This document shows, piece by piece, positions 2,886-61,220 of a DNA stretch of 64,000 nt. This DNA is from Aeromonas sp. (lineage in GTDB: Bacteria; Pseudomonadota; Gammaproteobacteria; Enterobacterales; Aeromonadaceae). The number at the start of each line of letters is the position of its first letter. Within the stretch, counting starts at the first letter, position 1. The notes under the pieces are model-generated. The model did no database searches. It saw only the letters and a program-made list of their open reading frames with translations, and had not been told where the DNA came from. The translations under genes were made by a program, and so were the position numbers. The stretch spans positions 4,660-68,659 of the forward strand of contig JBOFMA010000139.1 of NCBI GenBank assembly GCA_051658125.1. Direction: 5' to 3'.

Positions 2886-4046
2886 TTAGGCTTGGCGCAG
2901 GGCCAGCGCTTGGCGGTAGTACTCGTTGGCTTTCACCGTTAAGCGGCGTTTGTCCATCAGTTCGCCTAAGGCGTGATAGGTGGCTACGCTCGGCGCGCTG
3001 TGGACCAATTGCTCAAGCAGGGCTTGCGCGTCATCGAGTTGCCCCGCGCGCAGCAAAAACTCAGCCAGTACGGGCGCAACGCCCGCTTCATGTTGCTTCT
3101 TTTTCAATAAGGCAATCAGCGGTTGATAGTCATCGAGTTGCAGCGTGGGCAGCGCGGCCAAAATGGCGCTTGGCGCGGCTTTCTTTAAGCTCTCACTCCA
3201 CGCTTTAGCCGCCTCGCTGTGGGCACCGAGCGCGCATAGACACTGGCCATAATGCGCTTGCAGCGCCGCGCTTTGGCGCGCAGCTTTTGGCGCCTCGGCC
3301 CATAGCTGTGTTAACTCGCTGGCCGTTGTCGCGGCCGCTAAATGCGGCTGCCACGCGCTCTCTAGCAACTCTTGCTCATCGCTGGCCGAGAGTTTTTTCG
3401 CCTTGACTAAGCTGGCTAACAGATCGCATAACGCGGCCCAGTTGTGCTGCCCCGTGTGCACTTGGCGCAGCTGCTCAAGCACCATGGGATGGCGTGGATG
3501 CATGGCATACAGCGGCTCAAGGCGTGCGAAGGCATTGGCGTATTGCTGTTGGCTGATTAGCAGCTGGCTTTGGGTCAGGGTCAAGGCTAATTCTGCCTCG
3601 GGGTGGCTGGCTTGCGCTTGCTGCAAATAGAGCTCACTTTGCGCCGTATCACCGCGCTTGGCCGCCGCTTTGGCAGCGGTTAAGTAGTTCAGCAGCGGGG
3701 TGTCGCTGTTATCTACGCTTTTGAGCACTAATTTTTCCGCTTGGGCATACTGGCCTTCGGCCAGCGCCAAGGTCGCCGCCACCGCGCGCTCGTTAGCTTT
3801 GCGGCGTTGACGCAGGCCATACCAACCGCGGGTTTTGCTACGCAGCCCGAATAAGCGGCGCAGCAGCCATTCTAAGGCCAGCAGTGCGCCATACAGCAGT
3901 ACCAGCAAGATGGCTGCGCTGGTGGCGGATGATTCCACGGTGTAGTTGCCCAGGGCGATCAGCACGTAGCCCTTGTTGCCCGCGGCTTGTGGGCCAAAGG
4001 CCAGTCCCGCGACTAAGGCGGCGACCAAAATTAGCAAACGGATCAT
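2886..4046 (-). CDS. hemY: HemY membrane/TPR protein
   Basis: MIRLLIL..GNKGYVLIALGNYTVESS N-terminus, TPR-like helices, last gene of hemCDXY. Confidence 0.92.
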   Translation of the reverse strand: MIRLLILVAALVAGLAFGPQAAGNKGYVLIALGNYTVESSATSAAILLVLLYGALLALEWLLRRLFGLRSKTRGWYGLRQRRKANERAVAATLALAEGQYAQAEKLVLKSVDNSDTPLLNYLTAAKAAAKRGDTAQSELYLQQAQASHPEAELALTLTQSQLLISQQQYANAFARLEPLYAMHPRHPMVLEQLRQVHTGQHNWAALCDLLASLVKAKKLSASDEQELLESAWQPHLAAATTASELTQLWAEAPKAARQSAALQAHYGQCLCALGAHSEAAKAWSESLKKAAPSAILAALPTLQLDDYQPLIALLKKKQHEAGVAPVLAEFLLRAGQLDDAQALLEQLVHSAPSVATYHALGELMDKRRLTVKANEYYRQALALRQA

Positions 4047-4055
4047 GCGTGCTCC

Positions 4056-5099
4056 TTAGTTGTTGCTCAGCATGCGCTGCAGACGTTCGTTGAGGGCATT
4101 ATCGAGCATCAATTGGGCTTTGAGCGCGTTGGGATAAGCCAGCTTGATTGGCTGCGCTTTGAGCTCAGTCACCTGCGTGAGCAAGGCGCGAGTGGCCGGT
4201 TGCTCGCGATCAAAGTATTGCGCGACCCAGGCTTGGGCCTGGTTCAAGCTGGCTTGATACAGCGCTTGCTCCTCGCGGTACACGCTCAGCTGTGCTTGTA
4301 GCAGTTTAGTTTTCACATTCTCGCGTAAATAAACCTCTTGCTCGGGCGACAATAGCGCTTCCACGGCGCCATCGCGGCGGCGAATGGTGATGAAGTTTTC
4401 GGTAAATTGCAGCCAGTTTTGCGTCAAATTTTGCTGCCAATCGGTGACATCTTGGCTCACGCCGGCCTCGGGCGCGGTTTGCGCGTTGGGCATATCAACG
4501 TTGGTCAGCGGCAGGCTATCCATTTGCTGTGACAGGGCGGCTAATTTTAAGCTCAAGCCTTCGCGATCGAGCACCGGCAAGCCTTTGAGTTGGGCGATAT
4601 CTTCCGCCAGCGCTTGGCGAATGACCATCAGGCTCGGGTCAGCCAGCGCCTTGATCCGCTCGTCTGCGTTATCGAGCAGGGCAATGGTGGACACTACGTC
4701 GTGTTCTAGCGCCAGTTTACGGCCAGCGATGCGCACTAAGTAATCGGCCTCGGCCAGTAGCCAGTCGTTGGGGCGCTTTTCATCTAAGTCGAGCACCCGG
4801 CTTTGTAGCCCTTGCAGCTCTTTGTGCAGCACGCGCTGTTTTTGCTCCAAGCTGGCCAGTTGGTCACGGGCAAAGCTGCCGTTTTCTGCCAATTGGCTGG
4901 CGGCGCCTTGGAGTTGCTGCTTGAGGGCGCGAATTTCATCTTGCTGCGCCACGGCTTTTTTATGGCCATGCAGATACAGGCCACCGGTTAAGCCCAGGGT
5001 GAGTAAAATGGCCACGCTGCCGAGCAGGGCGCCGGAGCGGCCGCTTTTGGCGGGGGCTGCCGTGGTGGGCACCGCGTTGTCTTCATGTTGCTTGGTCAT
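4056..5099 (-). CDS. hemX: HemX family protein
   Basis: Single TM, coiled coil, WLLAEADYLVRIAGRKL and ENFITIRRRD..ALLSPEQ..LRENVK motifs. Start ATG 5099 overlaps the end of hemD. Confidence 0.92.
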   Translation of the reverse strand: MTKQHEDNAVPTTAAPAKSGRSGALLGSVAILLTLGLTGGLYLHGHKKAVAQQDEIRALKQQLQGAASQLAENGSFARDQLASLEQKQRVLHKELQGLQSRVLDLDEKRPNDWLLAEADYLVRIAGRKLALEHDVVSTIALLDNADERIKALADPSLMVIRQALAEDIAQLKGLPVLDREGLSLKLAALSQQMDSLPLTNVDMPNAQTAPEAGVSQDVTDWQQNLTQNWLQFTENFITIRRRDGAVEALLSPEQEVYLRENVKTKLLQAQLSVYREEQALYQASLNQAQAWVAQYFDREQPATRALLTQVTELKAQPIKLAYPNALKAQLMLDNALNERLQRMLSNN

Positions 5100-21544: not shown

Positions 21545-21629
21545 GCGAAGGTGGCGGAATTGGTAGACGCGCTAGCTTCAGGTGTTAGTGCCTTCGGGTG
21601 TGAGGGTTCGAGTCCCTCTCTTCGCACCA
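21545..21629 (+). tRNA. tRNA-Leu (CAG)
   Basis: GCGAAGG..CCA, anticodon loop TT-CAG-GT, long variable arm, TTCGAGT T-loop. Confidence 0.98.
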
Positions 21630-21682
21630 TACTGCTCTGCGGTGTTCCGCCACAGATAAATCAAAATTGGAAAATCTAATGT

Positions 21683-21767
21683 GCGAAGGTGGCGGAATTG
21701 GTAGACGCGCTAGCTTCAGGTGTTAGTGCCTTCGGGTGTGAGGGTTCGAGTCCCTCTCTTCGCACCA
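21683..21767 (+). tRNA. tRNA-Leu (CAG)
   Basis: Identical to the first copy. Confidence 0.98.
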
Positions 21768-21832
21768 TGAACTGACATGTAAAAACAGTGCCATGCCCCA
21801 TTGCATGTAAAAGATATGGGAACAATCAGTGT

Positions 21833-21918
21833 GCGAAGGTGGCGGAATTGGTAGACGCGCTAGCTTCAGGTGTTAGTGTCCCACGGATGTGAGGGTTCGA
21901 GTCCCTCTCTTCGCACCA
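21833..21918 (+). tRNA. tRNA-Leu (CAG)
   Basis: Same body as the other copies; variable arm differs (GTCCCACGGAT instead of GCCTTCGGGT). Confidence 0.98.
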
Positions 21919-34991: not shown

Positions 34992-35079
34992 TGGCGGAGG
35001 AGGTGGGATTTGAACCCACGGATGGTCGCCCATCGCCGGTTTTCAAGACCGGTGCATTCAGCCGCTCTGCCACCCCTCC
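34992..35079 (-). tRNA. tRNA-Ser (TGA)
   Basis: Reverse complement GGAGGGG..GCCA, anticodon arm CCGGT-CTTGAAA-ACCGG, long variable arm; 88 nt. Confidence 0.97.
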
Positions 35080-36520: not shown

Positions 36521-36608
36521 TGGCGGAGGAGGTGGGATTTGAACCCACGGATGGTCGCCCATCGCCGGTTTTCAAGACCGGTGCATTCAGCCGCTCTGCC
36601 ACCCCTCC
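36521..36608 (-). tRNA. tRNA-Ser (TGA)
   Basis: Identical to 34992-35079. Confidence 0.97.
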
Positions 36609-51829: not shown

Positions 51830-51922
51830 GGAGAGGTGGCCGAGAGGCTGAAGGCGCTCCCCTGCTAAGGGAGTATGCGGCTTATACCCGCATCGGGGGT
51901 TCGAATCCCCCCTTCTCCGCCA
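51830..51922 (+). tRNA. tRNA-Ser (GCT)
   Basis: GGAGAGG..GCCA, anticodon arm CTCCC-CTGCTAA-GGGAG, long variable arm. Confidence 0.98.
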
Positions 51923-51931
51923 TTTTCTTGG

Positions 51932-52008
51932 GCGCCCGTAGCTCAGCTGGATAGAGTACCTGGCTACGAACCAGGTGGTCAGAGGTTCGAATCCTCTCGG
52001 GCGCACCA
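51932..52008 (+). tRNA. tRNA-Arg (ACG)
   Basis: GCGCCCG..ACCA, anticodon arm CCTGG-CTACGAA-CCAGG. Confidence 0.98.
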
Positions 52009-52034
52009 TCAAGATGGCATACAACAATTTATGA

Positions 52035-52111
52035 GCGCCCGTAGCTCAGCTGGATAGAGTACCTGGCTACGAACCAGGTGGTCAGAGGTTCGAATCCTCT
52101 CGGGCGCACCA
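52035..52111 (+). tRNA. tRNA-Arg (ACG)
   Basis: Identical copy. Confidence 0.98.
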
Positions 52112-52165
52112 TATTTCAACTTTGTTGCTTATCGTTGATAGCGCGACAGGGTAACAATTTATTGA

Positions 52166-52242
52166 GCGCCCGTAGCTCAGCTGGATAGAGTACCTGGCTA
52201 CGAACCAGGTGGTCAGAGGTTCGAATCCTCTCGGGCGCACCA
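52166..52242 (+). tRNA. tRNA-Arg (ACG)
   Basis: Identical copy. Confidence 0.98.
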
Positions 52243-52552: not shown

Positions 52553-53464
52553 ATGAGCATTGACCTATCCCGTTTAATCACAGAAACGCGTAACCCAGCC
52601 AGTGTCGAAATTGACCAGCTCAGCACGCTGGAAATGTTGCGCATCATTAACCAAGAAGACCAACACGTTGCCGTTGCGGTGCAGGCGTTACTACCACAGA
52701 TTGCGCTCGCGGTGGATAAAATTGCCGATGCCTTTCGTTGTGGTGGACGCTTGGTATATATCGGTGCAGGAACCTCTGGGCGTTTGGGTATTTTAGATGC
52801 CAGTGAGTGCCCGCCGACTTACGGGGTGCCCGCATCACAAGTCGTCGGTTTAATTGCCGGTGGTCATAAAGCTATTTTGCAAGCGGTAGAAAACGCGGAA
52901 GATGATGCTGAACTCGGGGCGCAAGATTTGCACGCGCTGCAATTTAATGCCCGCGACGTATTAGTTGGTATTGCGGCCAGTGGCCGCACACCTTATGTGC
53001 TCGGCGCGATGGCTTACGCAAAAAGCCTTGGCGCTACGGTGTGCAGCATTAGTTGCAATCCAGGTAGCCCACTGGCACAAGCGGCAGATATCAGTATGGT
53101 CGCCGTCGTCGGGCCAGAAATTGTTACCGGTTCGTCACGCATGAAAGCGGGAACAGCGCAAAAACTCATTTTAAATATGCTCTCCACTGGCGCCATGATC
53201 CGCACAGGTAAGGTGTACGGCAACTTGATGGTCGATGTCGAAGCGACTAACGCTAAATTGATCGAAAGACAAAAGCGTATCGTGATGGAAGCCACCGAGT
53301 GCACGCGTGCGACTGCTGAAGCGGCGCTGGCCGCTGCAGATAACCACTGTAAAACCGCCATTGTGATGATCTTGTCGGCGCTAAGCGCTCTAGAGGCGCG
53401 CGCCTTATTGGCTAAGCGAGGCGGTTTTATTAGCCAATGTACCGCTGTGGGCACGGCTAAATAA
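52553..53464 (+). CDS. murQ: N-acetylmuramic acid 6-phosphate etherase
   Basis: [54 protein letters not shown] and NLMVDV motifs. Confidence 0.97.
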
Positions 53465-53519
53465 ATAACGACATGGGCGAATCATCGCCCCCTTTCAAAG
53501 TGATGTGATTGGGTGCTGT

Positions 53520-54965
53520 ATGGCGAAAATAACGGATTTAATGATTGGGCAGATTATTACTGCCATCGGTGGGCAGCAGAATATTTTGCACTGCGGCCAT
53601 TGCATGACGCGTTTGCGCTTGAGTTTGGCCGATAGCTTGCACGCTGATCGCGACACCATCAAGCGTATTGCCGGTGTGTTGGGTGTGATTGAAAGTGATG
53701 ACCAGTTTCAAATTGTGCTTGGCCCTGGCAAAGCGCAAACTGCCTGTGAAATGCTCTCCGCCAGCTTGGACAGTGGTGATACTGCAAGCATCCCACACGA
53801 TAATCAGCGTTTAAAAGATGTCGCGAGCGCAAATAAGCAAGCCTTAAAAAGCAAGCAAACCAGTGTTGCGCATCGCTTCTTAGCTAAATTTGCCACTATT
53901 TTCACGCCGCTGATCCCCGGTTTTATCGCTGCGGGGTTGCTGCTTGGGATATCGACATTACTTGAACAAACTTTATTGCCCGCACATGGTGCGGAGAGTG
54001 CATTAGCCGCCATGATTGGCTATATGAAACTGTTCAGTAAGGGTTTGTTTAGTTTTCTGAGTATTCTAATTGGTTTTAATGCCCAAAAAGCCTTTGGTGG
54101 CTCCGGTGTTAATGGCGCGATTTTGGCCTCACTGTTTGTCATGGGCTATAACCCCGACGCTACTAGCGGCATATATTCTGGAATTAATGATTTTTTTGGT
54201 CAAACCATTGATCCGCGAGGCAATATTATCGGGGTGTTGATTGCTTGTATTATTGGCGCGAATGTTGAACGTCAAGTTCGTAAATTTGTGCCAGATAGTT
54301 TAGATATGATACTCACCTCTTGTATCACTTTGCTGATTATGGGGGCGGTTACATTTATCTTGATCATGCCCGTCGGCGTGCAGTTATATAATGCCATGTC
54401 ATGGCTGTTTATTAATTTGAACGGTAATCCGTTTGGCACAGCGATTCTGGCTGGACTATTTTTAATCTCGGTAATGTTTGGTATTCATCAAGGTTTTGTG
54501 CCGGTCTATTTTGCGCTAATGGATGCACAGGGTTTTAATTCACTGTTTCCTATCTTGGCGATGGCCGGCGCCGGCCAAGTCGGTGCGGCGTTAGCATTGT
54601 ATAGCCGTGCTGCGAAAGACTCGTTATTACGTAGTCAGGTTAAAGGCACAATTATTCCCGGTATCCTTGGTGTTGGCGAACCGTTGATTTACGGCGTTAC
54701 GTTACCGCGCGTTAAACCATTTATCACGGCTTGTATTGGTGGTGCTTTGGGGGGCTTTGTGGTTGGTCTGATCGCTTGGTTAGGCTTGCCGGTCGGTTTA
54801 AATACCGTATTTGGCCCCTCAGGTATTGTCGCCTTGCCATTAATGACCTCAGCACAAGGTATTTTCCCCGGCATGTTAGTTTATACCGCAGGCCTCGCGG
54901 TGGCTTATCTTGCCGGCTATATTGTGACGCTACTCTTTGGCTGTAAAGATGTTGATTTAAGCTAA
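53520..54965 (+). CDS. murP: PTS N-acetylmuramic acid transporter EIIBC
   Basis: [12 protein letters not shown] cysteine motif, FGIHQG and [13 protein letters not shown] motifs; follows murQ. Confidence 0.9.
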
Positions 54966-55074: not shown

Positions 55075-56949
55075 ATGAAAAACATCGCTATTTTTGCAAT
55101 GAGCCTCGTGAGCGCTTCTGTATATGCGGCACCGGTTAGTAACGACGTATTGAAAACTTGGTGGCATTCACCGGCAACCTCAGCGGTACAAATTGTTAAC
55201 AATATGTCATTGCGCGAACAAATTGGTCAAACCTTAATGCTTGATTTTCGCGCATGGGGTAAAAATGAAAAAGATGAGCCGCTAGCTCTCACCAAATTGA
55301 ATAAAGAGATCGCCGAGATAATTTATAACTATCGGCTTGGCTCGGTGATATTATTTCGTGAAAACTTGCTCAATACCACGCAGACAGTTGATTTAATTAA
55401 TGCTTTACAAGCTGCACGCAGCAATTTGCCACTGTTTGTGAGTGTTGACCAAGAGGGCGGTTATGTCACGCGCTTGCAAGAAGGCACTGAAATGCCGGGT
55501 AATATGGCCTTAGGGGCCACACGCAATCCAGCTTTAGCGGAATTATCGGGTATGGTACATGGCGCTGAGCTTGCTAGCTTGGGCTTTAATTTTAATTTCG
55601 GTCCAGTAGTTGATGTAAATAGTAATCAAAATAACCCAGTGATAGGTGTGCGTTCTTATTCTGACCGGCCTGAATTGGTCACCACAATGGCTAATAGCTA
55701 TGTAAAAGGCATCCATAAATATAATATTTTAACTTCAGCCAAGCATTTCCCTGGGCACGGTAACGTAGCCGTGGATTCGCATTTTGGTTTGCCATCGGTG
55801 CCTTACTCGGTGCAAGAGTGGCGCCGGATTGATTTACCGCCTTTTGCGCAAGCACTTAAATACGGTGCGGATTCCGTCATGACCGCGCATGTTTCTGTAC
55901 CTCAGTTAGATAACTCACAGTTGACGACGTTAAAAGGCGAAAAGATGACTACGCCAGCGACGTTATCAAAAAAAATCATCGATGGGGTGCTGCGTCAGCA
56001 GCTTAAATTTGATGGTTTGGTATTAACCGATGCGATGGATATGGGTGCAATTTCAAGCAATTTTGACATGAACTGGGCGGTAGAGACGGCATTAAAAGCA
56101 GGCGTAGATATTGCTTTAATGCCGATCCCGATATGGGATGCGGCGGCGGTTGGAAAATTAGATAAGCTGTATACCCATCTCATAAGCCAAGCAGATAAAG
56201 ATGAAGATTTGCGTGAGCGTATTAAGCAATCCGCGCAGCGTGTAGTGTTGGCTAAGTTAACTCACCGCATTGATGGCATGGCAAAAGATAGCGCAGTAGC
56301 TAAAACCATCGTCGCTTCTTTACAGCATAAAAAGCTCGAAGATATGGTATCGGAAAATGCGATAACTTTGATTAAGAATGATGCGGTATTGCCGTTTGTA
56401 TTAAAAGAAAATAGCAATATATTGGTTATTTCCGATGAGCAATCACGTAATGACCTGATAATTAAGCACATTAATGGCTTGGTGAATGAGACCGCGTTGA
56501 GCGCGATTAACCTGGACAGTGCTAAAGTCGCATTAATGGGCAACGATTTGTCTACAGACACCTTACAGGCAAAAATAGCGCAAAGTGATTTGATTGTGTT
56601 AGCGACATATAACTTAGGTAAAGACCCACTTAACGCGCAAAAGATTATTGATGCGGCAAATATGGCGCAGAAAAAATTAGTGGTGATTGCGACGCGCAAT
56701 CCTTATGATATTGCGCACTTGCGTAATGTTAACGCTAATTTGGCCATCTATGGTGTTACGGGATTTGACATCACAAATAACAATAGAAATAGCTTGGAAG
56801 CCAATATTAAGGCTGGCGTGAAAACACTATTTGCAGACCCGGTAACGCAGCAGCCATTTAATCGTCCGCTAGGGAAGTTACCTGTCAATATTAAATCAGC
56901 TGATGGTAGTAAAGTGTTGTATGCCATTGATCACGGTTTGACATTTTAA
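55075..56949 (+). CDS. nagZ: Secreted two-domain GH3 beta-N-acetylglucosaminidase (NagZ, Bacillus type)
   Basis: Sec signal MKNIAIFAMSLVSASVYA, VDQEGG.V.RL, RSYS, KHFPGHG..VDSH (His/Asp dyad), MTAH and LTDAMDM (nucleophile); C-terminal domain with TRNPYD. Confidence 0.88.
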   Translation: MKNIAIFAMSLVSASVYAAPVSNDVLKTWWHSPATSAVQIVNNMSLREQIGQTLMLDFRAWGKNEKDEPLALTKLNKEIAEIIYNYRLGSVILFRENLLNTTQTVDLINALQAARSNLPLFVSVDQEGGYVTRLQEGTEMPGNMALGATRNPALAELSGMVHGAELASLGFNFNFGPVVDVNSNQNNPVIGVRSYSDRPELVTTMANSYVKGIHKYNILTSAKHFPGHGNVAVDSHFGLPSVPYSVQEWRRIDLPPFAQALKYGADSVMTAHVSVPQLDNSQLTTLKGEKMTTPATLSKKIIDGVLRQQLKFDGLVLTDAMDMGAISSNFDMNWAVETALKAGVDIALMPIPIWDAAAVGKLDKLYTHLISQADKDEDLRERIKQSAQRVVLAKLTHRIDGMAKDSAVAKTIVASLQHKKLEDMVSENAITLIKNDAVLPFVLKENSNILVISDEQSRNDLIIKHINGLVNETALSAINLDSAKVALMGNDLSTDTLQAKIAQSDLIVLATYNLGKDPLNAQKIIDAANMAQKKLVVIATRNPYDIAHLRNVNANLAIYGVTGFDITNNNRNSLEANIKAGVKTLFADPVTQQPFNRPLGKLPVNIKSADGSKVLYAIDHGLTF

Positions 56950-58171: not shown

Positions 58172-58230
58172 TGTTTAATTAGTGTGCGGCGCTATGTGTG
58201 TCATACGCGCCGAGCAAGGAGTAATGAAAA

Positions 58231-59046
58231 GTGAAAAAAATCTTGTGGTCGATATTATTTGCCTGTTCGGCAAACGCCTACGCTGATTTGCCGGCGCTAT
58301 CGAGTGCGCAATTAAATGATATTGGTGAGCGTATTTATAAAAATGAGGCGGCAGGCAAGCGCGAAAATCTAATATTTTGGGGTGAGCATGAGGCCTTTCC
58401 TTCACTCGGAATTGCCCATTTTATTTGGTATCCGGCTGGGCAAACGGGGCCTTTTGAGGAGATGTTTCCTGCCCTAGTCGAGCGCTATAAGCAAAAAGGC
58501 ATGGCATTACCGAAATTATTGCAAACCCATGCCCATGCGCCTTGGCCAGATCGTGCGGCTTTTTTAGCGGCAAAGAACAGCCCTGAGGTTTTGGAGTTGC
58601 TGGCATTTTTAGATAGCACTCGTGCCGTGCAGGCTGAGGCGGTGTACGCCCGTTTAGAGGGCGTGTTAGGACGCTTAATTGCGGCTAGTGCTAAACCAGA
58701 GCAGGTAAAAACGCAGTTTAATCGAGTGGTACAAGATAAAAATGGTGCTTATGCCTTGATTGATTACATCAATTTTAAAGGCGAGGGGGTTAAGGCCAGT
58801 GAGCGCTTTAATGGTAAAGGTTGGGGCTTATTGCAAGTGCTAGAAAATATGCATGGCACCGCGCAAGATGCTACGGTCATGCGTGAATTTGCCGGTAGTG
58901 TGATCGTGGTATTGGCACAGCGCTCGTTAAATGCCGCGCAAGACTCCCGTTTTCAGGCCGATCCTCACGCCAAGCAGCGCGTCGAAACCGGCTATATGCC
59001 GGGCTTTTCCCGCCGCGCTCTGACGTATATGGGCATTGGCTTGTGA
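58231..59046 (+). CDS. Uncharacterised secreted protein, putative lysozyme/chitosanase-like fold
   Basis: Signal peptide MKKILWSILFACSANAYA; IYKNE(39)..W.EHE..SLGIAHFIWYP, LIDYINFKGEG and GWGLLQVL motifs. Confidence 0.7.
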   Translation: MKKILWSILFACSANAYADLPALSSAQLNDIGERIYKNEAAGKRENLIFWGEHEAFPSLGIAHFIWYPAGQTGPFEEMFPALVERYKQKGMALPKLLQTHAHAPWPDRAAFLAAKNSPEVLELLAFLDSTRAVQAEAVYARLEGVLGRLIAASAKPEQVKTQFNRVVQDKNGAYALIDYINFKGEGVKASERFNGKGWGLLQVLENMHGTAQDATVMREFAGSVIVVLAQRSLNAAQDSRFQADPHAKQRVETGYMPGFSRRALTYMGIGL

Positions 59047-60428
59047 GGCGCGCTCGCGCAGTAACGCTGGCCAGTGCTTGGCTAGCGGCGCTAAGTTGTG
59101 CTCCGGCATTGGCACAAACGCTCAATGCACCGCTAGCCGCGGCGCCGATACAGCTGGGTGTGGATCGTAGTGATGTTTATGGCCCATTGCTGAAAGGTAA
59201 ACGGGTGGGCTTGATGGTGAATCAAAGCTCGCGCGATAGCCATGGCGTACATACCATCGATAAATTGCTCAGTGAGCAACAACGCTATGGCTTTACCGTG
59301 ACCAAGCTGTTTTCTGTCGAGCATGGTTTACGTGGCAAAGCCGAAGCGGGTTATGGTGACAAGGCGAATTATCGCGACCCTAAATCGGGTTTACCGGTAG
59401 TGAGCCTGTATGGTAACGATGCTAATGGTCAATCGCGCGCACAGCCGCGTCCTGAGCAGTTAGATGATGTCGATGTCATCGTATTTGACTTACAAGATGT
59501 GGGTGTGCGCTTTTTTACTTACACCATCTCGATGCATCGGATGCTGGAGAGCGCGCAGGCGGCGGGTAAGGCGTTTATGGTTTTTGATCGCCCCAACCCC
59601 AATGGTGGGCAGGTGTATGGCCCGCTTCTTACGGAGGGCTTTGTCTCTGGCATTGGTATTCATCCGTTGCCGATGGTGCACGATCTAACCACTGCTGAGT
59701 TTGCTGCCATGATCAATGGCGAGTTATGGCTAAATGGCCTTCAGCATGCAGACAATCAGTGGCAGCAGTTTGGGCAGGTGCAATACCAATTGCCGGCAGC
59801 GGATTTGCAGTTGATCCCAATGCAAGGTTATCAGCGTGGACAACGTTATGTCTTGCCGGTACCTCCGTCACCCAATTTAGCTAATGAACTTGCTGTGCGT
59901 TTGTATCCATCGCTGGGCTTATTTGAAGCCACCAGCGTGAACATGGGGCGTGGTTCGGACTATCCGCATCAGCAAGTGGGTTTTCCTGATCCGAAGATGC
60001 AAGTTAACGTGCGTTATTCGGTGGACGCCAAACAAACGGACTATGGCTGGCCACAAGGTGGCAAGACGGTCTATGGGCAGAGTTATCGGCCGGAATTAGG
60101 CGGTGCGGCACCGGCTACGTTGCAAGCGTCGATTACGCCGTTTGTGACGTGGTGGTTTAAGTTAACGCAAGCCGGTTACCAAGGTGCGCTGGATGCTGCG
60201 CGTGAGCCTGACTATTTGCAGTACGCACAAACGCACTATGTGATCCGGCCACAATGGTTAGGCAAGGTGGTGGGCGATGATTCGCTGCTTCAGGCGTTGA
60301 CGCAAGTTGATGTCACACAAGCAACGGTGGCGCACACCGTTGCGGCCATCGAACAAAGTTGGCAGCCGGCGCTGCAGAAATATTTGCAACAACGGCAACC
60401 CTATCTGCTCTATCCACCGGCGAAATAG
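59043..60428 (+). CDS. namZ: Exo-beta-N-acetylmuramidase NamZ family (DUF1343, GH171)
   Basis: Signal peptide, VGLMVNQSS, FSVEHGLRG, SLYG, FDLQDVGVRFFTY, DRPNP, H.LT.AE, PSPNL and EAT..N.GRG motifs; GTGA overlap with the upstream gene. Confidence 0.88.
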   Translation: MRRARAVTLASAWLAALSCAPALAQTLNAPLAAAPIQLGVDRSDVYGPLLKGKRVGLMVNQSSRDSHGVHTIDKLLSEQQRYGFTVTKLFSVEHGLRGKAEAGYGDKANYRDPKSGLPVVSLYGNDANGQSRAQPRPEQLDDVDVIVFDLQDVGVRFFTYTISMHRMLESAQAAGKAFMVFDRPNPNGGQVYGPLLTEGFVSGIGIHPLPMVHDLTTAEFAAMINGELWLNGLQHADNQWQQFGQVQYQLPAADLQLIPMQGYQRGQRYVLPVPPSPNLANELAVRLYPSLGLFEATSVNMGRGSDYPHQQVGFPDPKMQVNVRYSVDAKQTDYGWPQGGKTVYGQSYRPELGGAAPATLQASITPFVTWWFKLTQAGYQGALDAAREPDYLQYAQTHYVIRPQWLGKVVGDDSLLQALTQVDVTQATVAHTVAAIEQSWQPALQKYLQQRQPYLLYPPAK

Positions 60429-60469: not shown

Positions 60470-60496
60470 ACCGCTCAGCGCTTGAGCGGTTTTTTT
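60470..60496 (+). terminator. Terminator closing the murQ-namZ cluster
   Basis: ACCGCTCA-GCGCT-TGAGCGGT followed by a T tract. Confidence 0.8.
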
Positions 60497-60584
60497 ATGT
60501 CGCGCGGTTATTTCTTTGGCTAGTCACTGATCGCGGGCGTGGTTTTCGGTATTATCGAGGCTCATTTGCCAAAGGTGGGTATGT

Positions 60585-61220
60585 GTGGGTATTCGCGCGC
60601 AACAAAAAGAGAAAACGCGCCGCTGCGTGATTGATGCGGCCTTTAATCAGCTCAGTAGTGATCGTAGCTTTTCGAATTTGAGCTTGCGTGAGGTCGCGCG
60701 CGAGGCGGGCATTGCGCCAACCTCGTTTTATCGCCATTTTCGCGATATGGAAGAGTTGGGCTTAACGTTGGTCGATGAAGGTGGCTTAACCCTGCGCCAA
60801 CTGATGCGCCAAGCGCGCCAGCGGATTGCCGGCGGGGGCAGCATTGTGCGCACCTCGGTGCAAACCTTTATGGAATTTGTCGAAAACAATCCCAATGTGT
60901 TTAGATTGTTACTGCGCGAGCGCTCGGGCACCTCACCGGCGTTTCGCCAAGCGGTGGCGCGCGAAATCCAGCACTTCACCGCTGAGCTGACCGATTATTT
61001 AGAAGCCAACACCGAGGCTGAGCGTGATGAGGCCTATGCCCAAGCGCAAGCGATGGTGACGATTGTGTTTAGCGCCGGCGCAGATGCGCTGGATATGAGT
61101 GTGCCAGAGCGCCATGTGCTGAGCGAGCGCACAGTGCAGCAGTTGCGCATGTTAGCGTTGGGGGCTGCCAGCCAAATGCAGCTGCGTCGCCACCACGCCG
61201 CGAGTCAAAAAAAGGAGTAA
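60585..61220 (+). CDS. fabR: TetR-family regulator FabR
   Basis: [34 protein letters not shown] and LLLRERSG motifs. Confidence 0.96.

Follow-up and report, generated by a model that had tools for sequence, protein, structure and literature searches.

The window analysed here is a 64,000-nucleotide stretch of DNA from Aeromonas sp. (assembly GCA_051658125.1, contig JBOFMA010000139.1, positions 4,660 to 68,659 of the forward strand). It contains an operon for the salvage of N-acetylmuramic acid (MurNAc) in the order murQ-murP-GH3 (NagZ-like)-OMP-X-namZ, with all genes on the forward strand, where GH denotes a glycoside hydrolase family, OMP an outer-membrane beta-barrel-like protein, and X the 271-residue protein that is the subject of this analysis (Table 1). 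A first-pass annotation made from the sequence alone had proposed X as a new endo-muramidase with a lysozyme-superfamily core, cutting the substrate for the two exo-enzymes of the cluster. Both exo-enzymes are indeed encoded. The best NCBIfam match of the GH3 protein is the NagZ model NF003740 (193 bits) and its N-terminus is signal-peptide-like, and namZ encodes the second exo-enzyme.

Table 1. Features of the salvage operon and of the X gene (window coordinates).
Feature	Position	Strand	Remarks
tRNA-Ser(gct) and three tRNA-Arg(acg)	51830-52242	+	directly 5' of the operon, 3' of alaS and csrA
murQ-like MurNAc-6-phosphate etherase	52553-53464	+	Pfam GKRP_SIS_N and SIS
murP-like phosphotransferase system (PTS) EIIB-EIIC transporter	53505-54965	+	Pfam PTS_EIIB, PTS_EIIC
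exported two-domain GH3 beta-N-acetylhexosaminidase, NagZ/YbbD type	55075-56949	+	Pfam Glyco_hydro_3, 7e-89
outer-membrane beta-barrel-like protein (OMP), 375 aa	57044-58171	+	C-terminus ...MELKHKF
Shine-Dalgarno AAGGAG	58216-58221	+	strong site, 9 nt 5' of the X GTG start; direct sequence reading
X, unannotated family, exported	58231-59046	+	271-aa open reading frame
X signal peptide, residues 1-18 (cleavage AYA/D)	58231-58284	+	N-terminus MKKILWSILFACSANAYA followed by DLP, typical Sec signal
X candidate catalytic core, residues 25-67	58303-58431	+	helix ending N38-E39, W50, E54, S58-L-G-I-A-H63-F-I-W-Y
X second invariant block, residues 172-207	58744-58851	+	G-x-Y-x-x-x-D178-Y-x-N-F-K183-G-E-G...E191...W198-G-L-L-Q-V-L
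namZ, GH171 exo-beta-N-acetylmuramidase family, 461 aa, own signal peptide	59043-60428	+	NamZ_N 3e-62, NamZ_C 1e-13
terminator-like hairpin (9 pairs), then T-run	60470-60497	+	operon end

The open reading frame of X is real. It starts with GTG, and an ATG at 58224, near this start, lies in a different reading frame. Its stop codon TGA (59044-59046) overlaps the GTG start of namZ (59043-59045) as GTGA, so the earlier description of an exported protein of 271 residues overlapping the namZ start agrees with the open reading frame, the signal-peptide-like N-terminus, and the overlap coordinates. The N-terminus also contains a relaxed lipobox (LFAC, with Cys12), making a lipoprotein a possible alternative, and lipoboxes are present in 15-27 of the 105 single-domain representatives of the family.

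X belongs to a large family that the databases do not name. Hidden Markov model scans and phmmer and hmmsearch searches with X and its relatives gave no meaningful match in Pfam, NCBIfam, PHROGs, or the sequences of the Protein Data Bank (PDB), consistent with the first-pass annotation, which had called the protein unknown. Matches to SpoU_methylas_C, DUF5983, and Muramidase were rejected as noise (E >= 0.009). The Pfam scan covered X and 82 relatives with an E-value cut-off of 10, and the HMMER speed filters drop most matches above ~0.1. In the literature searched we found no description of the family, and the recently described peptidoglycan families GH171 NamZ and GH184 are unrelated to it. 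A search with one family member retrieved at least 7999 clusters at 90% identity, and a profile search retrieved 1086 representatives (at most 50% identity), 566 of them at E <= 1e-30. Relatives of X are also encoded in the GTDB species genomes, in at least 590 matching stretches. The named matches are all from diderm bacteria (Fusobacteriota, Verrucomicrobiota, Gamma-, Zeta-, and Deltaproteobacteria/Thermodesulfobacteriota, Chlamydiales, Elusimicrobia, and one spirochaete), and every source name is "hypothetical protein". No relatives were found among INPHARED phages, PLSDB plasmids, or IMG/VR, and we rejected a phage endolysin origin on this basis.

The gene contexts of the closest relatives connect X with peptidoglycan salvage in two operon designs. 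A relative whose X is 70% identical keeps the gene order of the window. The next-closest relatives (42-48% identity) lie on low-GC contigs (29-37% GC) in a sister design, in which co-directional genes encode the OMP, a GHL10 protein of the DigH family, and X. Beside them are lactose/cellobiose-family (chb-like) PTS components IIB, IIC, and IIA, the 6-phospho-N-acetylmuramidase MupG, a BadF-type sugar kinase, a GH4 phospho-glycosidase, and an RpiR regulator. Escherichia coli DigH itself matches GHL10 (PF02638, 6e-136), and DigH (YddW) is a hydrolase specific for denuded glycans (PMC12288456). The OMP of one such low-GC locus (L093, 3256-4401) is 48% identical (3e-120) to that of the window, whose Pfam matches are only weak or sub-threshold (DUF2490, Omp85). 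A search with the OMP alone identified three further OMP-GHL10 loci, and X is the next gene in two of them (OMP at 7941-9155 in L097 and 3437-4606 in L099). Membership in a MurNAc-salvage operon was found for the window, the 70%-identical relative, and four loci of the sister design. OMP and X form a module common to two operon designs in different phyla, and most members of the X family occur without the OMP.

Some features of these loci deserve mention in their own right. The OMP is itself an unannotated family, which retains 48% identity between a gammaproteobacterium and low-GC diderms and always occurs in MurNAc-salvage loci, and it may be a porin specific for muropeptides or glycans. In the third locus found with the OMP (L098, OMP at 194-1363), X is missing and an unrelated 404-residue ATPase-like gene (3253-4467) follows GHL10, which may reflect a rearrangement or the loss of X. 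The sister regulon (L097 1742-7737; L099 91-3185; L093 2-3197 and 7170-8474) combines a chitobiose-type PTS with both MupG and GH4, and because of this pairing it may import two different peptidoglycan disaccharides.

Domain fusions point in the same direction as the operons. We scanned the 45 representatives longer than about 330 residues among the 150 best-scoring members of the family. Thirteen carry an N-terminal GH3 domain, with a signal-peptide-like start in those inspected, and the NagZ model is the best NCBIfam match of each of the five that were tested (185-203 bits). The other fusion partners are LysM (three), Amidase_3 (one), TPR (four), Ser/Thr kinase (four), and PP2C (one). In the kinase fusions (P0307, P0358, P0335, and P0341), X is C-terminal, and a single transmembrane segment separates kinase and X in those examined. 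From these fusions we conclude that X is extracytoplasmic in every architecture. The X domain of the kinases and the PP2C phosphatase may represent a new type of PASTA-like cell-wall sensor. Five long members (P0243, P0250, P0267, P0270, and P0365; 468-841 residues) have N-terminal regions of 200-500 residues without a Pfam match, which may be further partner domains.

Further synteny proved lineage-specific. In Verrucomicrobiota, a gene for a YkuD L,D-transpeptidase lies directly 3' of X in 17 loci, starting 3 nucleotides past the X stop (8849-9457 in L006-L008, and likewise in 14 further loci), and a NagZ-type GH3 gene lies ~2-3 kb upstream on the opposite strand. Unbiased clustering of neighbours recovered only the lineage-specific synteny of Verrucomicrobiota (YkuD, CinA, and ClpX), and the contexts of the homologues from Fusobacterium (P0040) and Mariprofundus (P0191) and of P0021 gave no functional clue. 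The first-pass annotation had suggested looking for co-occurrence of homologues with namZ. NamZ was found within 8 kb of X in only 1 of 80 other genomes (GTDB loci). We rejected the coupling to namZ as a family-wide rule; this linkage was found only in the lineage of the window.

We consider it very probable that X has a role in cell-wall salvage. The protein would be a periplasmic, possibly lipid-anchored, peptidoglycan-processing member of a large unannotated family, and probably the founder of a new peptidoglycan-hydrolase family. Two known systems offer useful comparisons. The murQ-murR-murP-amiE-nagZ-namZ operon of Bacillus subtilis encodes sequential NagZ, AmiE, and NamZ reactions (PMC8054146). 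The window has the same MurQ, MurP, exported NagZ, and NamZ, with X placed among the exported enzymes; unlike the B. subtilis operon, the diderm operon includes the OMP, has X in place of the beta-lactamase-fold AmiE, and lacks murR. E. coli DigH and X are both exported, chromosomal, non-phage glycan-processing proteins of diderms, and a GHL10 gene lies immediately 5' of X in the sister design. However, their families and folds differ, as GHL10 proteins match PF02638 and X matches no Pfam family. The co-occurrence of X and GHL10 in one operon implies that their roles are not identical.

Conservation was counted among 150-151 family representatives of at most 50% identity and revealed a candidate catalytic core near the N-terminus. 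The first-pass annotation had identified a helix ending in IYKNE39, followed by E52 or E54 as the second acid and by SLGIAHF. The residues are as it had given them (S58-LGIAHF64), and the Glu39 that it singled out for a conservation check is invariant (150/150). W50 is likewise invariant (150/150), and E54 (148/150) and S58 (149/150) are kept almost as strictly. Its two candidates for the second acid fared differently, as E54 is nearly invariant whereas position 52 is variable. G60, H63, W66, D178, Y179, G184, G186, G199, R262, and Y266 are kept in all representatives, and K183 (149/151), R231 (150/151), and Q134 (150/151) in nearly all. The second invariant block probably lines the substrate cleft. 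Such strict retention of about 20 residues in 150 or more representatives is more typical of active sites.

The AlphaFold2 model of X (predicted local distance difference test score, pLDDT, 91.6; predicted template-modelling score 0.86) places a helix at residues 25-40 with E39 in its last turn, then short strands (47-48, 58-59, and 64-65), and then a helical lobe carrying a second small hairpin at about 191-196. The same order of elements around the equivalent residues is seen in the model of P0136, a relative with 35% identity (pLDDT 93.5). The helix ending in Glu39, which had been read from the sequence, is thus present in both models. In both, the order of secondary-structure elements agrees with that of the lysozyme superfamily, in which the catalytic Glu ends a helix facing a cleft between a small beta-sheet lobe and a helical lobe. 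In a Foldseek search of the PDB with the model of X, the two top matches were GH46 chitosanases: 1qgi_A (E 0.05, probability 0.96, template-modelling score 0.38-0.40) and 6lwu_A (E 0.5). The template-modelling scores over both matches were 0.38-0.43, the alignments span ~266 columns, and lower matches were noise. In BFVD, the top matches were a peptidoglycan effector-like protein, a phage glycoside hydrolase, and "lysozyme family" proteins (E 0.3-2, template-modelling score ~0.4).

Profile comparisons point to the catalytic hairpin of lysozymes. The family consensus S-L-G-I-G-H-F resembles T26-I-G-I-G-H31-L of T4 lysozyme, and the best hhalign alignment of the family with T4 lysozyme pairs X residues 47-65 with T4 residues 15-33 (E 0.014). 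Against a GH24 profile of six sequences (five taken from PDB alignment output, plus T4 lysozyme), residues 46-72 of X aligned with residues 19-44 of P22 lysozyme (E 0.0017, probability 15%, at most 27 columns covering the catalytic hairpin only). A local re-run scored 26.3, whereas 100 column-shuffled profiles averaged 13.7 and reached at most 20.9. The alignment pairs S58 with T26, G60 with G28, and H63 with H31 within the hairpin motif D..T-I-G-x-G-H.

The two enzyme families closest to X by these signals are GH24 and GH46. GH24 enzymes have the motif E-x(8)-D-x(5)-T-I-G-x-G-H, with E11, D20, and T26 in T4 lysozyme, and the corresponding residues of GH46 are E22, D40, and T45. X resembles the T4/P22-type lysozymes of GH24, in which a catalytic Glu closes an N-terminal helix and a hairpin with an acid and [ST]-[IL]-G-[IV]-G-H-[LF] follows. 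The acidic pair of X would fit an inverting hydrolase, as in GH24. X differs from GH24 in lacking a PF00959 match, in being ~100 residues longer, in its extra invariant block at 172-207, and in its absence from phages. GH46 chitosanases (1CHK, 1QGI, and 6LWU) are similar to X in size (238-259 residues compared with ~250 mature residues) and have the same order of features, namely a Glu helix, an acid, and then T/S-x-G-I-x-x-F. In X, the spacing from E39 to E54 is 15 residues and that from E54 to S58 four, compared with 18 and five (Thr after Asp) in GH46; the three residues of X are essentially invariant, but their equivalence would be one by analogy. Unlike GH46, X has invariant basic residues and occurs in peptidoglycan contexts, both of which argue against polycationic chitosan as the substrate; K183, R231, and R262 might rather suit an anionic, lactyl-bearing one.

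With these similarities, X most likely works like a glycosidase of the lysozyme superfamily among the mechanisms that we weighed, a tentative assignment to which we give somewhat less than even confidence; that X is specifically an endo-muramidase we hold with low confidence. In the mechanism that we envisage, the co-conserved OMP would admit cell-wall fragments and X would cut the glycan backbone in the periplasm, after which the exported NagZ-type GH3 enzyme and NamZ, working from the non-reducing ends, would release N-acetylglucosamine (GlcNAc) and MurNAc. MurP would import and phosphorylate MurNAc, and MurQ would convert the product to GlcNAc-6-phosphate. In the sister operons, X would act alongside the DigH-like GHL10 enzyme, with the products entering via the PTS and MupG/GH4. 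Speculatively, the two exported enzymes of the sister design (GHL10 and X) and its two cytoplasmic phospho-disaccharidases (MupG and GH4) would fit complementary bond specificities. By analogy with the lysozymes, Glu39 at the end of the first helix might serve as the general acid and Glu54 in the hairpin as the base, with Ser58 positioning the water. The invariant Trp and Tyr residues together with Lys183, Arg231, and Arg262 might bind the anionic MurNAc-containing strand.

Several observations weigh against a lysozyme-like glycosidase. No PF01374 (GH46) sequence match was found for X or its 82 relatives, and hhalign found no similarity of the family profile to either 1CHK or a GH46 alignment (probabilities at most 0.2%). 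The 1CHK sequence used was verified as 100% identical to the PDB chain; the alignment consisted of 1CHK, its close homologues, 4ILY, and 4OLT, and its profile is shallow, as the homologues are all at least 83% identical. By sequence, X is not a member of GH46. None of the structural matches is significant, the best having an E-value of 0.05, and the search with the P0136 model gave only unrelated helical proteins, with neither GH46 nor a lysozyme among them. The structural check that had been recommended thus placed GH46 at the top for the model of X, but this was not reproduced with its relative. The catalytic Asp of GH24 falls in the profile alignment on position 52, which is variable, and E54 comes two residues after it; the distance from E39 to the hairpin exceeds that of the catalytic Glu in GH24 by four residues. 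The proposed lysozyme-superfamily core accordingly holds for the resemblance of the E39/E54/S58-x-G-I-x-H-F block to a catalytic helix and hairpin, but not at the level of a significant structural match. The idea of a lysozyme fold is weakly supported, and such a catalytic core is a plausible lead, the best structural one that the models offer.

Further points concern function. The family is missing from the phage, plasmid, and IMG/VR collections, which one would not usually expect of a strongly lytic muramidase. The copies of X fused to kinases retain every "catalytic" residue, and these residues could serve binding only. The first-pass annotation had reasoned that X fills the gap left by a missing endo-cutter. 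X is indeed an unannotated exported protein in a salvage operon, but the argument fails in the sister design because that design already has a probable endo-hydrolase, the DigH-like GHL10 protein. No recognisable amidase is encoded in either operon design.

This last point leads to the main rival explanation, a serious one although we consider it unlikely: X might perform the peptide-stripping step as a MurNAc-L-alanine amidase or another "denuding" enzyme, a functional equivalent of B. subtilis AmiE that supplies peptide-free glycan to NamZ or the DigH-like GHL10 protein. NamZ and NagZ act on denuded glycans (PMC13627109), and the need of NamZ and DigH for such glycan (PMC8054146, PMC13627109, PMC12288456) would give a denuding enzyme a place. 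The parts of the B. subtilis operon (PMC8054146) recur in the window, except that an amidase is lacking and X is present instead, X is the shared unassigned component of both designs, and a GH3-X fusion would make sense as a pair of NagZ and amidase. However, no match to the Amidase_2, Amidase_3, or beta-lactamase-like AmiE families was found for X. Only one His is invariant, the conserved positions include no invariant Cys, and neither the zinc-ligand set typical of amidases (H,H,C/D or H,E,H) nor an SxxK motif was found in X, so that a typical zinc site and a Cys-His dyad are both lacking. The mostly helical model, with its predicted Glu helix and hairpin, would also be unlike known amidase folds. 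The single relative fused to Amidase_3 suggests a complementary rather than an identical activity, and housekeeping periplasmic amidases could supply the step.

X might alternatively be a non-catalytic binder of peptidoglycan fragments that captures muropeptides or glycans for the OMP and its neighbours and acts as a sensor in the kinase and phosphatase fusions. The placement of X after a single membrane helix in Ser/Thr kinases, and once with PP2C, resembles PASTA-type sensors, the kinase-fused copies keep all invariant residues, and OMP and X are conserved together across phyla. Some members are lipoproteins, and the family is absent from phage lysis modules. Against this, the strictly invariant acids stand at lysozyme-like positions among about 20 near-invariant residues, the LysM and TPR fusions have the appearance of catalytic domains to which a binding module has been added, and the OMP is lacking beside most family members. 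We regard a purely binding function as rather improbable.

We give about the same small weight to another proposal, in which X would represent a new class of peptidoglycan hydrolase on a lysozyme-like scaffold that catalyses a reaction other than that of a classical endo-muramidase. This reaction might be a metal-independent, peptide-stripping "denuding" or a glycosidic cut whose bond specificity complements that of DigH; it would feed the NamZ, DigH, and MupG routes, and the domain would also have been recruited as an extracellular muropeptide sensor of diderm Ser/Thr kinases.

A non-hydrolytic lytic transglycosylase making 1,6-anhydroMurNAc ends is quite improbable: the same lysozyme-like core signals and the restriction of the named matches to diderms would suit it, but the near-invariant second carboxylate E54 occupies the position that the base has in hydrolytic lysozymes, no SLT (GH23, PF01464) match was found in the 83 members under the Pfam settings above, and anhydro ends would be poor entry points for the MurP/MurQ route. 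Lytic transglycosylases (GH23, GH103, and GH104) typically lack a second catalytic carboxylate. The GH23 enzymes have an E-S catalytic motif, with GLMQ about 15 residues after it and AYNxG further on. The stretch G-W-G-L-L-Q-V (198-204) resembles the GLMQ motif of family-1 lytic transglycosylases, which we treat as a lead only. E185, the Glu located 14 residues before G199-L-L-Q, was ruled out as an SLT-like catalytic residue because it is kept in just 106 of 151 representatives, and E191 was left unsupported in this role.

The genomic surroundings suggest how the operon might have reached this genome. The GC content drops to 41-45% over ~53.5-58.5 kb (murP, GH3, OMP, and the start of X), compared with 55-58% in the flanks, and the closest relatives of OMP and X outside the clade are on the low-GC contigs mentioned above. 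The dip in GC content and the position beside a tRNA array suggest that the salvage operon was horizontally acquired, possibly from a Fusobacteriota-like donor, and the tRNA-Ser/tRNA-Arg array is its likely insertion point. The proteins of the contig are singletons, and CsrA alone groups with Shewanella, Vibrio, and Alteromonadales-type gammaproteobacteria. Elsewhere in the window, three tRNA genes on the forward strand (21545-21915) have identical Rfam scores, as do two on the reverse strand (34995-35079 and 36524-36608), ~1.5 kb apart. In the relative with the 70%-identical X, a divergent murR (HTH_6 and SIS; L089, 8948-9808) directly follows namZ. In the window, no murR is present after namZ; a fabR-like TetR gene (60585-61220), a gene for a small membrane protein, and ssb follow the terminator instead.

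How the exo-enzymes NagZ, NamZ, and MupG salvage peptidoglycan has become clear only recently, and for diderm bacteria the preparation of their substrates is poorly defined. Two independent MurNAc-salvage designs include X as a conserved exported protein of unassigned function, and its family of thousands is unnamed in databases. The assignment of its reaction would add a new family of glycoside hydrolases or peptidoglycan hydrolases, fill in the periplasmic half of the pathway, and account for the recurrent GH3-X fusion and the sensor domain of the kinases.

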